Positions 58,152 through 64,000 of a stretch of 64,000 nucleotides of DNA are shown here, piece by piece. Numbering within the stretch: position 1 is the stretch's first letter; every line of letters starts with the position of its first letter. The DNA is from an uncultured Verrucomicrobiae bacterium. Its GTDB lineage: Bacteria; Chlamydiota; Chlamydiia; Chlamydiales; JAFEGQ01. The notes under the pieces are model-generated. The model saw only the letters and a program-made list of their open reading frames with translations. It was not told where the DNA came from and did not search any database. A program made the position numbers and the translations under genes. The DNA is taken from positions 10,356 through 74,355 of the forward strand of contig CAVUAA010000001.1 in assembly GCA_963739345.1 (NCBI GenBank). The letters run 5' to 3'.

Positions 58152-58255
58152 GGGACAATGAATATTATTAGTTGCACCTGAATGCCCCCGCTAAGTAACG
58201 TATGATCCTTAACGCATGCAGGGTTGTACCTGCACAAGACAACGGGAGTGATAGC

Positions 58256-59356
58256 ATGATGCGATTAGTGCGAACTACAGCTCTGGCAATGAGTATGCCA
58301 GTTGCCTCGCTGTGGGGATTATTCGGCGGCTGCTGTGATGGGGCTTTGGAATACATTCAACCAGCCATCAATGTGTACAAGGATGCAGACTACTACATAG
58401 GGGCAGACTTCCTCTACTGGACGCACAGCGACTGTGACTACGGATATGTCGCAATACTGAATGATATTCTCCAAACTCCAACTCCACCACTGGTCCCACC
58501 GGCTATCAACGCGTTCTCAAGCCGCAACAACATCGAATACGTGAAACCAGGCTATGACCCGGGCTTCCGCATTCGGATCGGATTCGACGCCTTCGGTTGC
58601 CATAGAGAAGAGCTCAGCTACACATGGGTGGAGATCCGCAATACCGATGCGGTCAAGCTCAATGTTAGCCAGCCGATCCAGGCAGTTGAGCCCACCATCA
58701 TCACAAACAACTCCTTTGCCCCAGCCTTTGCTGCGCCGGCAGACAAGATCACCGGGGCGGTATTTAGTCGCTATCAGCGAGTGGTCTGGGACCTCGGCAC
58801 GAACTTCTGTGTAGGCGATTGGGGATGGTTCCGCGCGGGTGGCCTCCCCCAATGGGTTGGCATCTCACACCACCGGACAACGACAGCTCACTTCCCATCA
58901 CTCGACCAAACTTATTCCGATGTTCAAAAGTTCGAGTTCTCTGCTGGCGGCGTTGGATACTATGTCGGCTATATGGTCCACATCAACGACTGCGGCTTCT
59001 ACTCCATGGGGAGAGTGGTTGTTAACACCGTTCTGTCCAGACAGCGTATGACTCGTAGAGGCATCTCAACGATCGCAAGCGTCGCCGCCCAACCGGTGCC
59101 GATCTTCGACGGGCTAACCATTCCAGGAAGAACCTGCTTTACTCCAGGCTTTGAGATGAATGTGGGCCTCGGCTGGACCAAGCAGTGTAAGTGCTTTAAG
59201 CTCGATCTCCTCATCAACTATGAGATCCAAACCTGGCTAAACGCACTTTCCTACAGAGTCGGAGGAAACCAGGTGGTTCCCTCGTCGGCCGAAGATATCC
59301 TCTTCGGCGGTATATCCTACGGCGGCCCCTCTCTGAGGTTCGAGGTAGGGTACTAA
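58256..59356 (+). CDS. Cysteine-rich putative outer-membrane beta-barrel protein, type A (copy 1)
   Basis: Signal-like MMRLVRTTALAMSMPVASLWG, GGCCDG, ADFLYWTHSDCDYGY, KQCKCF, terminal ISYGGPSLRFEVGY*. Paralogue of 61757..62860. Confidence 0.6.
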   Translation: MMRLVRTTALAMSMPVASLWGLFGGCCDGALEYIQPAINVYKDADYYIGADFLYWTHSDCDYGYVAILNDILQTPTPPLVPPAINAFSSRNNIEYVKPGYDPGFRIRIGFDAFGCHREELSYTWVEIRNTDAVKLNVSQPIQAVEPTIITNNSFAPAFAAPADKITGAVFSRYQRVVWDLGTNFCVGDWGWFRAGGLPQWVGISHHRTTTAHFPSLDQTYSDVQKFEFSAGGVGYYVGYMVHINDCGFYSMGRVVVNTVLSRQRMTRRGISTIASVAAQPVPIFDGLTIPGRTCFTPGFEMNVGLGWTKQCKCFKLDLLINYEIQTWLNALSYRVGGNQVVPSSAEDILFGGISYGGPSLRFEVGY

Positions 59357-59429
59357 AATGAAAACAAATGACGTTTATGACGCGCCCGCAGGGCACGAGA
59401 TCGATGCAATAAAAACGAAGAGGAGACCG

Positions 59430-61756: not shown

Positions 61757-62860
61757 ATGTTCCGAACAGCAAGCCGAGTGCTTCTGATTGTCGCCCTACC
61801 GGTTATTTCTCTATGGGGTGCATCTGACGGCTGCTTCAACTTTAAGCGCGATTACTTCGACCCTCTGGTGAAGGTCTACGCGTCTGGAAATTACTACGCA
61901 GAAGCTGACCTTCTCTACTGGACGCACAGTGACTGTGACTACGACTATGCCCTTCTCGTCGACGCCATACTTCAAACCCCACCATCAGCCATTCCGCCGG
62001 CAATTACAGCTAACACCGACCGCGGGACAAAGCAGTTTGTCAGACCCGGATATGGGCCGGGTATCAGACTCCATATCGGTTTCAGAAACGACCCGTGCAC
62101 TTCACAGGATCTCAGCTATACCTGGATAGAGATCAAAAGCAGCAGCGTAACGAAGCTCGACACTAACAGTACATTTCAGCCGTTTGAACGCTCGGTTATT
62201 ATTTCTAATTCTTTTGATGGTGAGCCCAACAAGATCACCGGGCAAGTGATCAGCCGATACCAACGGCTTAATCTCGAGGTTTTGACTGCTTTTCAGTTAG
62301 GGGACTGGGGAGAATTTGTCGCGGGGGGCGAATACATGTGGGTCAGCATCACACACTACCAAAATAGTTCCGCCGTCCTCCCCTCCCTCCCTCCAGGGAG
62401 CCTCCGTCCAGAGGTTAGCAAGAAGTACACGTTCTCTGGAGGCGGAATTGGATACCAGCTCGGCTTCCGCTATAGGCTTGGAGAGTGTGGCCTTCACATG
62501 GTCGGACGGTCGGCACTAATCGGACTGATCGGTAGGCAACGGGCCACTCGCAGCGGAGTCTCCACGCTACCCAATCTTCTCGTAGTTCCTTCTACCGCAT
62601 TCGCATTCAATGAGGCGGTCACTGTCCCAGGACGGACCATTCTCCTCCCGGGTTTTGAGGCTATGGCTGGCATTGGATATGTCCATGATTCCAAATGCTA
62701 TACTGTACGTATTACAGTCTCCTATGAAATTCACCAATATGTCAGTGCCCTCTCTACTCGCATCGCTTCAACTGATTTACTTCCCCCCATTGGGGAAAAC
62801 CCGCTATTTGGATCGATTTCGTACGGTGGCCCGGCGCTCTCATTGGAGGTCAGCTATTGA
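61757..62860 (+). CDS. Cysteine-rich putative outer-membrane beta-barrel protein, type A (copy 2)
   Basis: MFRTASRVLLIVALPVISLWG, ADLLYWTHSDCDYDY, KITGQVISRYQRL, terminal ISYGGPALSLEVSY*. Confidence 0.6.
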   Translation: MFRTASRVLLIVALPVISLWGASDGCFNFKRDYFDPLVKVYASGNYYAEADLLYWTHSDCDYDYALLVDAILQTPPSAIPPAITANTDRGTKQFVRPGYGPGIRLHIGFRNDPCTSQDLSYTWIEIKSSSVTKLDTNSTFQPFERSVIISNSFDGEPNKITGQVISRYQRLNLEVLTAFQLGDWGEFVAGGEYMWVSITHYQNSSAVLPSLPPGSLRPEVSKKYTFSGGGIGYQLGFRYRLGECGLHMVGRSALIGLIGRQRATRSGVSTLPNLLVVPSTAFAFNEAVTVPGRTILLPGFEAMAGIGYVHDSKCYTVRITVSYEIHQYVSALSTRIASTDLLPPIGENPLFGSISYGGPALSLEVSY

Positions 62861-62973
62861 AAGGACAAAAGGTTCCCTCATTGCGTATCTCTGTTAATCC
62901 GGGTACCGACCTATCCCCTGATCGCATGCACCGTCGTTTTTCGTTGAGGACAGGTGGTGCCGAGAATGCCGAT

Positions 62974-64000
62974 ATGAGGCGCAATATCATTTGCAAGCCC
63001 CGCAAAGTCAGAGGCAAATGGGCCACGGGTGCCGCGATTGCGGAAAGGTGGCGACTTGGGATACTTAGCATCGCACTCCTTCTAGCGACAACGGGTGCGG
63101 ACGGGCAAGCAGTAGGATCGCCTACCAGCGGTCGAGGTGGTGGGACAACCCCTTGGTATGGACAGGTGTACGCAGGAGCTGGTGCGTTGTGGTATCGACA
63201 GGGGGATAACGATTCGCTCTATGCTGTTGCTGGTGCCACTGATATCAACTTCCCCATCCCAGGGGACTACAGTAAACTCAACGAACAGTACATTAGGGCA
63301 CTGGGTGCTTGGGGTTACAAGGTTTTTGTCGGATTTGACAAGGAATGGATCGATGTGTCCGTCTCATATAAGTGGTGGGAAGGGAATGCAGCTGCTTCTG
63401 TTCAACGGCCGCCGGCGCCCGACGGCTTTCTCTATGTCCCCGGTACGGCCGGAGACTGGGAGCAGATCAGCGCCACCCAACGCACCCGCTATCAGGTTGG
63501 CTCCATCTGGGTCGGAGTCCCGGTAGGCACCGCTTGTGGACTCGTCACCTCGATCCACTGCATGGCTCGCGTCATTGACCTTGACCAACGGGTTCGGATT
63601 GATGCTGCTAATCCCACCTTTCCCCCTGGCGCCGCTGCTAACACAGTGGGACGCGGACTGGCACGCTCTCGCTTTCAAGGTGGAGGCGTCGGTTTTGGGC
63701 TGAGTCAAGAAGGGGAGCTTCCTTTTAAGCACTGGACGACGGGCGGCTATTTTTGTTTTCTCGGCATTATCGGCAATTCATCCATGAGTATCTCACAGTT
63801 TCGCATCATCCCCCTCGCTAATAATGTCACGCCGGGACAGGATCTGACCCTAAGGCTCACGCAGCAACGCTACTGGGTCCCCGCTCTTGAGGCGGCGACC
63901 TTTTTTTCTTATACGTATGCTTGTGGCGATGTCGAAATCAAGGTGCGCTTTGGATACGAATGGAATATCTATTTCAATGCGCTCTACGAGACTCCTGCTG
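62974..64000 (+). CDS. Putative outer-membrane beta-barrel protein, type B (copy 2), 3'-partial (runs off the window; absent from the ORF track)
   Basis: Own translation of frame 1 from the ATG at 62974: MRRNIICKPRKVRGKWATGAAIAERWRLGILSIALLLATTGADG..RFQGGGVGFGLSQ..TPGQDLTLRLTQQRYWVP..NIYFNALYETPA. No stop before 64000. Confidence 0.6.
   Translation, partial: MRRNIICKPRKVRGKWATGAAIAERWRLGILSIALLLATTGADGQAVGSPTSGRGGGTTPWYGQVYAGAGALWYRQGDNDSLYAVAGATDINFPIPGDYSKLNEQYIRALGAWGYKVFVGFDKEWIDVSVSYKWWEGNAAASVQRPPAPDGFLYVPGTAGDWEQISATQRTRYQVGSIWVGVPVGTACGLVTSIHCMARVIDLDQRVRIDAANPTFPPGAAANTVGRGLARSRFQGGGVGFGLSQEGELPFKHWTTGGYFCFLGIIGNSSMSISQFRIIPLANNVTPGQDLTLRLTQQRYWVPALEAATFFSYTYACGDVEIKVRFGYEWNIYFNALYETPA

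Follow-up and report, generated by a model that had tools for sequence, protein, structure and literature searches.

A tandem array of predicted MOMP-like outer-membrane barrels arranged in three-gene units in a deep-branching member of the Chlamydiota

Do three deeply divergent, predicted outer-membrane proteins whose genes stand side by side in repeated units act together in the chlamydial envelope? This question is raised by the last part of a 64,000-nucleotide stretch of DNA from an uncultured bacterium placed in the Chlamydiales (GenBank assembly GCA_963739345.1, contig CAVUAA010000001.1, positions 10,356 to 74,355 of the forward strand; hereafter "the window"). An initial annotation, made by a model from the letters of the sequence, had noted five consecutive genes there and had sorted them into three types, in the order A1-B1-C-A2-B2. 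We propose that the locus consists of two successive units, A1-B1-C1 (C1 being C) and A2-B2-(C2), encoding divergent barrels of the Legionella_OMP/MOMP-like kind, and we consider it probable that these act as a set. In structure, antigenicity and relevance to vaccines, the major outer-membrane proteins (MOMPs) are the chief components of the chlamydial envelope, and their architecture, trimers of 10-stranded barrels, was first solved in 2025-2026. Three ancient paralogues that are co-inherited as a set, and in versions with a graded cysteine (Cys) load, would represent a natural experiment on such proteins.

The five genes and their family

Re-reading of the open reading frames (ORFs) confirmed five of five genes on the forward strand, with the same boundaries as in the initial annotation (Table 1). 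B2 has no stop codon inside the window; its C-terminus, FGGPTIFVGAIY, was taken from the source annotation (call P0007) and the full protein ends in VGAIY. The two paralogous pairs that had been proposed are indeed related by about 42% identity (BLASTP: A1/A2 41%, E 1e-108; B1/B2 42.5%, E 2e-88). Comparing types A, B and C with each other gave ~20% identity and E values of 1e-4 to 1e-9 (6.5e-7 for A1 against C), type C being the most divergent of the three. Similarity in this range is beyond chance, and A1, B1, C1, A2 and B2 are therefore all paralogues. Translation also bore out the aromatic C-terminal residues noted before (Y, F, F and Y for A1, B1, C1 and A2), to which B2 adds a further Y, as well as the signal-like N-termini: all five proteins begin with a basic n-region, followed by a hydrophobic core and a cleavage motif of small residues (AEA before Q in B1). 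No further member of the family was found elsewhere in the 64-kb window.

Ribosome-binding sites of the AGGAG/GAGGA type are located 5' of the start codons chosen in the initial annotation, among them GGGAG 5' of the A1 ATG and AGGAG 7 nt 5' of the B1 ATG. The start of C is identical in the source annotation (P0099), and for B2 no alternative in-frame start yields a signal peptide. The frames of B1 and C are open further upstream, to ATGs at 59358 (24 extra residues, 59358-59429) and 60527 (18 extra residues, 60527-60580) that abut or overlap the stop codon of the preceding gene. Both extensions are partly conserved in two related contigs (L001 and L002, described below) and could reflect translational coupling or a conserved leader or ribosome-binding sequence. 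The ATGs at 58202, 59358 and 60527 were candidates for the true starts, given their position right at the stop of the gene before and the partial conservation of the extensions; we nevertheless retained the internal starts because of their good Shine-Dalgarno sites and normal signal-peptide geometry. In the source annotation B2 appears to begin at an internal codon (P0007; 311 amino acids (aa), lacking the signal peptide) and A1 to begin at MPVASL (P0006, 353 aa). Part or all of the signal peptide is lost with these starts, which were probably mis-called. We also considered type A as a lipoprotein, with a Cys following the signal peptide. This was rejected since the residues before that Cys are unlike a lipobox and the Cys itself is missing from the A2 orthologue P0003.

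Table 1. Coordinates of the genes of the array and of further features of the window
Feature	Position	Strand	Remarks
A1, type-A MOMP-like barrel precursor (predicted)	58256..59356	+	366 aa, 9 Cys, C-terminus EVGY
B1, type-B paralogue	59430..60527	+	365 aa, 10 Cys, C-terminus GALF
C1 (= C), type-C paralogue	60581..61624	+	347 aa, 8 Cys, C-terminus AINF
A2, type-A paralogue, second triplet	61757..62860	+	367 aa, 5 Cys, C-terminus EVSY
B2, type-B paralogue, second triplet	62974..64000	+	cut by window end; full protein ~382 aa, 5 Cys
Terminator-like hairpin and T-run	61648..61682	+	hairpin 61648-61671, 10 pairs, 8 of them G-C
Possible terminator after upstream GDPD gene	58113..58151	+	CCCCC-TTCATAA-GGGGG hairpin, 11-nt spacer, T9
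TctC-family receptor	8333-9334		high-GC part of window
Tll0287-like protein	508-1881		high-GC part of window
Truncated PanB	4969-6111		high-GC part of window
Transposase, Tnp_DNA_bind and DDE_Tnp_1 (Tn5/IS4-like)	31906-33069	-	chlamydial part of window
Transfer-messenger RNA (tmRNA) gene	37365-37783	-	Rfam RF00023, 140.9 bits; tag peptide AKTTNKIHAVDFRGARAEAEAEWAMAA

The three types had previously been left without a named family. This no longer holds: A1 (38.5 bits), A2 (49.2 bits), B1 (26.6 bits) and B2 (28.4 bits) all score above the gathering score of the Pfam family PF05150 (Legionella_OMP, 25.4 bits), B1 and B2 exceeding the cutoff narrowly. Type C is connected to them by profile-profile comparison with hhalign (C vs B 98.3%, E 2e-14; C vs A 96%, E 5e-9; B vs A 98.9%, E 1e-17). 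By this comparison and by its predicted fold type C is homologous to A and B, though it stays below the formal hidden Markov model criterion of PF05150. None of the five proteins matched NCBIfam, PF01308 (Chlam_OMP) at E<=1, or any of the porin families in Pfam.

An exhaustive HMMER search of 1.84 billion cluster representatives with a type-A profile returned 91 proteins at E<=1e-3, 14 of which reach E<=1e-10 and two E<=1e-30. Nearly all of these relatives are 300-400 aa long, carry a signal peptide and are rich in Cys in their N-terminal segment, and they share an EALYWKP motif and an FGGPYxxLxxxF ending. PF05150 is matched by 58 of the 59 aligned relatives. The profile made from the 59-sequence family alignment has one solved match only, chain 9nh1_A ("Major outer membrane protein"), which it matches over the full length with an E value of 7.7e-19. 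When the A-type alignment was used for pattern scans, neither a genome collection (185,579 species) nor the JGI metagenome collection yielded a relative, so that the clade is either missing from both or too divergent for such scans. A word-indexed search with a mixed alignment of A, B and C returned six proteins, and little was gained by it beyond the full B2 sequence.

We conclude that A1, A2, B1 and B2 and, by its homology to them, probably also C are new, remote members of a described family, PF05150, to which the "MOMP-like" proteins of Legionella and chlamydiae belong. According to the initial annotation, its claim of novelty would fall if all five proteins belonged to one described MOMP-like family, and this is largely what we found. 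Because the family is named and has already been described in chlamydiae, the novelty of the proteins is modest; what the locus adds is a remote branch, contributed by a chlamydial lineage that has been sampled poorly.

AlphaFold2 models, built with the family alignment, of A2 (predicted local distance difference test, pLDDT, 86.5; predicted template modelling score, pTM, 0.82) and C (pLDDT 84.4, pTM 0.78) are all-beta after the signal helix, with long antiparallel strands. When the models were compared with the PDB using Foldseek, chains A, B and C of 9NH1 ranked first for both A2 (E 9e-12) and C (E 1.5e-9), with template modelling (TM) scores, normalised to the target, of 0.65-0.75 across the two models and 0.75 for A2. 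9NH1 is the MOMP of Legionella (Lpg2961), a trimer of 10-stranded barrels (PMC12501162). OmpT, Pla and OpcA ranked next (target-normalised TM 0.44-0.56) and FadL-type barrels were also among the matches, with poor TM. The 16-stranded Neisseria PorB, BpsOmp38 and Vibrio OmpT reached a TM of 0.10-0.18 only, and the models thus do not show the classical porin fold. As modelled, A2 and C are beta-barrels like the solved 10-stranded Legionella MOMP. Together with the PF05150 matches, these predicted structures uphold the earlier description of secreted, Cys-containing barrel paralogues akin to the MOMP-like proteins of environmental chlamydiae. The term "porin" that had been used for them is not assured, since the homologous chlamydial MOMP fold has been reported not to be an open pore; in addition, the nearest structures are 10-stranded, OmpT-like trimeric barrels and not 16-stranded porins.

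Triplet copies and cysteine content

The initial annotation had expected the array to run past the end of the window. This is borne out by the syntenic contig L002, in which the gene order is nrdA-nrdB-GDPD-A1-B1-C1-A2-B2-C2 and stops and starts overlap within the second triplet. From the position of C2 in L002 (12204-13247), C2 would be located directly 3' of B2, outside the window. Searching for exact copies of the window's A2 and B2 products turned up no contig, and the few close relatives that exist all share this arrangement. In L001 the genes A1-B1-C1-A2-B2 are followed by the end of the cut contig. A third, much more divergent A-B-C is carried by L084/L085/L086, whose third gene matches the C profile best (156 bits, vs 74 for the A and 84 for the B profile), and L089/L090 contain a single A-B-C followed by unrelated genes. 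A heterotypic A-B pair had been proposed as the duplicated unit. Joint duplication was confirmed, but the composition of the unit has to be revised: as seen in L002, L084 and L089 it is A-B-C.

In a neighbour-joining tree that included 17 other family members, types A, B and C were each monophyletic in 200 of 200 bootstraps. The internal topology, (X3,(X1,X2)), was identical in each type with 198-200 of 200 bootstraps. Monophyletic types with congruent topologies mean that the split into A, B and C predates all copies of the triplet. Judged from these sequences, the whole triplet has been copied at least twice with its gene order kept, and no loss or reordering of A, B or C was found in the ~6 triplets seen. 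Orthologue identity across the three organisms is alike for A1, B1 and C1 (72-78%; 72-76% for the A1 orthologues in L001 and L002) and amounts to 59-64% for A2 and B2. Two further tandem arrays, with two genes in L087 and three in L088, consist of close, homotypic paralogues. We found no published description of a conserved heterotypic triplet with a graded Cys load, and this is the only feature of the locus that we did not find described.

Intergenic gaps in the array are small and contain Shine-Dalgarno sites, and a strong terminator is located between the triplets only. This hairpin with its T-run, which had been noted before as a strong terminator after C, was the top terminator-like site in a consensus scan of the region and divides triplet 1 from triplet 2. 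A second element after the upstream GDPD gene was missed by the scan because its T-run is not adjacent to the stem; it might perhaps delimit the 5' edge of the A1-B1-C1 unit.

The proteins of the array had been called cysteine-rich as a whole. This applies to triplet 1, with a Cys share of 2.3-2.7% and, in the window, 8-10 Cys per protein in CC, CxxxC and CxC motifs, and hardly applies to triplet 2 (1.3-1.4% in A2 and B2). Across contigs, each protein of triplet 1 has 8-11 Cys, against 4-6 for triplet 2 and 13-14 for triplet 3. The Cys count hence tracks the triplet and not the type, and the evolutionary rate does likewise. The conserved Cys columns comprise an N-terminal cluster, A2 positions 60, 114, ~183 and 244, and the CxC at 312/314. 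Triplet 3 has Cys in every one of these columns, and triplets 1 and 2 have lost them piecemeal. The CxC column is present in 18 of 20 sequences, and C314 is conserved to at least 90% in the 59-sequence family alignment.

As a general rule, the short turns of an outer-membrane barrel are found on its periplasmic side, as is the C-terminus. In the A2 model the short turns at 59-62, 112-114, 181-184, 241-245 and 312-315 coincide with the conserved Cys columns and alternate with long, less confident loops. They match the Cys-bearing periplasmic turns, one of them a CxC turn, of the chlamydial MOMP structure of 2026; this MOMP is a trimer of OmpT-like barrels of 10 strands each and also carries Cys in its N-terminal region (PMC13254160). 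By the orientation rule for barrels and by analogy with MOMP, the conserved Cys would ring the periplasmic rim.

A common assembly and its alternatives

From sequence features and homology we infer the following course of events. Each protein would be exported by its Sec signal peptide, inserted by the barrel assembly machinery (BAM) via the C-terminal aromatic beta-signal, and folded as a tall OmpT-like barrel, as in Legionella MOMP, with trimer formation being likely to follow. The Cys at the periplasmic rim would then form intermolecular disulfides and yield a cross-linked chlamydial outer-membrane complex; the Cys of MOMP are thought to act in this way (PMC13254160). The products of A, B and C would function jointly, as a set within a single membrane assembly, which is suggested by their fixed order, the copying of whole triplets, and the shared rate and Cys content. 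With triplet 1 (Cys-rich) and triplet 2 (Cys-poor) on separate transcription units, strongly and weakly cross-linked versions of the assembly could be formed. That the two versions serve different developmental stages or hosts is speculative.

The most specific form of this model is a mixed A:B:C trimer. We put it forward tentatively, as separate homotrimers co-expressed in one lattice are at least as likely. It is unlikely that A, B and C are obligate heterotrimer partners whose two to three isoform sets switch the envelope between rigid and flexible by their Cys load, e.g. between infectious and replicative forms. If true, such a complex would be without precedent, as a genetically hard-wired heterotrimer, among barrels of the MOMP/Legionella_OMP type; it would show a route from homotrimeric envelope barrels to fixed hetero-complexes and tie Cys load to envelope rigidity. 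If a heterotrimer does not form, what remains is an ordinary array of paralogues from a family already known.

Separately from the array we noticed three proteins of ~1050-1100 aa (P0011, P0070, P0080) with three tandem PF05150-like repeats of barrel length per chain, P0011 having one Cys. If real rather than frame-merged arrays, these would be covalently fused barrel "trimers" and relevant to the trimer question.

It is a serious possibility, if somewhat short of an even one, that A, B and C each form a homotrimer of their own with its own job, such as a certain solute selectivity or certain partners, their adjacency being due to the retention of tandem duplicates in an operon and to whole-segment copying. 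This would be in line with the known structures, as 9NH1 comprises three chains of one sequence (PMC12501162) and MOMP was refined with C3 symmetry (PMC13254160). Tandem arrays are moreover common in the family, from the three and two paralogues of L088 and L087 to the clustered genes of Waddlia (PMC2878342). However, the other arrays are made up of close homotypic copies, whereas the types described here are ~20% identical and older than the triplet duplications. The constancy of the ~6 triplets, together with a Cys content and a rate that follow the triplet, likewise speaks for a common set of A, B and C. Another reading takes the array as a repertoire of surface adhesins or antigens, with paralogue diversity serving host range or immune evasion. 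Such a role was proposed for the 11 Cys-rich family members of Waddlia (PMC2878342) and, as far as a citing paper reports, family members have been described as adhesins (Kebbi-Beghdadi 2015, cited in PMC6490308); the long, lower-confidence loops of the models are also the parts that diverge most between paralogues. We nevertheless regard this as quite unlikely for the locus, because the triplet 1 orthologues of three organisms are 72-78% identical, types A, B and C having evolved at equal rates, and we saw neither rapid loop-driven diversification nor copy-number flux in the clade, in which gene order and number are fixed.

That the ORFs encode cytoplasmic or periplasmic proteins or are spurious would agree with the lack of any NCBIfam match, but this is scarcely credible and effectively refuted by homology and models. 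The Pfam scores exceed the threshold, the barrel models are confident, homology to a solved outer-membrane protein extends over the full length, orthologues are kept in four other contigs, and the proteins have signal-like N-termini and aromatic C-termini.

Several points weigh against the proposal that A, B and C form one set of cross-linked barrels. Gene order, congruent trees and covariation were drawn from a sample of four or five genomes or contigs, and a segmental duplication of the operon would copy A, B and C together anyway. The signal peptides were assessed by eye and by hydrophobicity, which is a heuristic procedure, the region scan found no sigma-70-like promoter, and C had no Pfam match at E<=1. 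DSSP assigned 11 long and two short strands to the A2 model; this leaves the strand count unsettled, and therefore also the side of the membrane on which the first Cys turn is located. As triplet 2 is Cys-poor, cross-linking cannot be essential to the fold. Finally, the barrel of MOMP in the elementary body (EB) is plugged, which its authors deem incompatible with a porin function (PMC13254160), and for this reason solute conduction by barrels of the A, B and C types is doubtful.

Genomic context and known systems

The best relatives of the NrdA encoded in the window are 64-69% identical and belong to chlamydial metagenome-assembled genomes (MAGs; Waddlia-labelled, uncultured Chlamydiae, Simkaniaceae and Amphrikana). 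In L001 a CT021-family gene adjoins a long LepB, as in Chlamydia. Taken together, this identifies the host as a deep-branching lineage of the Chlamydiota, none of whose close relatives has been sequenced. Family members were found in none of 80 nrdA neighbourhoods of other bacteria, including ~10 chlamydial MAGs; the position of the array beside nrdAB-GDPD is specific to this small clade. Upstream of the array L001 carries CT021-lepB and a gene for a 955-aa protein, vs nrdAB-GDPD in the window and L002. The array has therefore moved or its flank was rearranged. The 955-aa protein (L001 2959-5826, forward strand), located between lepB and the array, has no Pfam match. The single A-B-C of L089 is adjoined by a gene for a 401-aa protein (2701-3906, reverse strand) with a weak match to the eukaryote-like RhoGEF family of Pfam; this protein may be a secreted effector. 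NrdA proteins 65-68% identical to that of the window were also found in L004, L005 and L009, from MAGs labelled Verrucomicrobia bacterium SZAS-9 and Bdellovibrionota bacterium. Since these are as close as the NrdA of bona fide chlamydial MAGs, the three may be mislabelled chlamydiae.

The window itself is not uniform. Positions 1-~16100 have a guanine-plus-cytosine (GC) content of 65-78%, which drops to ~54% within 300 bases. This part, with a TctC-family receptor, a Tll0287-like protein and a truncated PanB, looks unlike the chlamydial remainder (break within 1-16400) and might stem from a chimeric join in the assembly or from foreign DNA acquired recently. In the chlamydial part we found a Tn5/IS4-like transposase. 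The tmRNA gene was the sole RNA gene detected in the window (Table 1).

Abundant outer-membrane barrels that replace MOMP in another group of environmental chlamydiae are already known from Protochlamydia and Parachlamydia (PomS/PomT, PMC3561449). By their description these are set apart from the proteins of the array, as a separate family restricted to the Parachlamydiaceae, with two Cys in PomS (PMC3561449). OmpT/Pla and OpcA share with the predicted structures a tall barrel whose strands reach above the membrane, but they are monomers without Cys, and no sequence similarity to the proteins of the array was detected. MOMP and PorB of the Chlamydiaceae (PF01308) resemble them in the architecture of a trimeric, 10-stranded OmpT-like barrel and in the Cys of the periplasmic turns and the N-terminal region (PMC13254160). 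In contrast to these, the proteins of the array have no PF01308 match and are smaller than the 42-kDa MOMP.

PF05150 is already known to be greatly expanded in Chlamydia-related bacteria, with 219 copies in the Planctomycetes-Verrucomicrobia-Chlamydiae (PVC) superphylum and 36 in Simkania (PMC7145651). For Waddlia, 11 clustered genes of an "OmpA family" have been described, whose products are Cys-rich predicted barrels with 13-19 Cys per protein (PMC2878342), and MOMP-like or OmpA-family genes occur in Estrella and Rhabdochlamydia as well (PMC6490308); the counts are ~35-37 for Simkania, 11 for Waddlia, 10 for Estrella and 5 for Rhabdochlamydia. The array agrees with this chlamydial OmpA family, which has Cys signatures of the CC, CxC and CxxC kinds, in domain, hosts, multi-copy clustered genes and predicted barrels (PMC2878342, PMC6490308). 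It differs in three respects: the Cys counts in the window, 8-10 in triplet 1 and 5 in triplet 2, are below the 13-19 of Waddlia, type A is a remote branch (14 relatives at E<=1e-10, two at E<=1e-30), and the other arrays sampled are homotypic.

The closest known system is the MOMP of Legionella (9NH1), whose trimer superposes on chlamydial MOMP at ~6 Å (PMC13254160). It belongs to PF05150, has a signal peptide and an aromatic C-terminus, and is the best structural match of the A2 and C models. The motifs aLYxkP, dWGf, F.G.G..G, GY..YfnA and GPY.gL are common to it and the family profile. The proteins of the array are however ~60-90 residues longer (~320-345 aa in mature form vs a precursor of 288 aa), are 12-13% identical to it in the structural alignment, and contain conserved turn Cys and a CxC that Legionella MOMP lacks. 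Furthermore, Legionella MOMP was modelled as a homotrimer, whereas the locus described here encodes three deeply divergent types in a fixed triplet.

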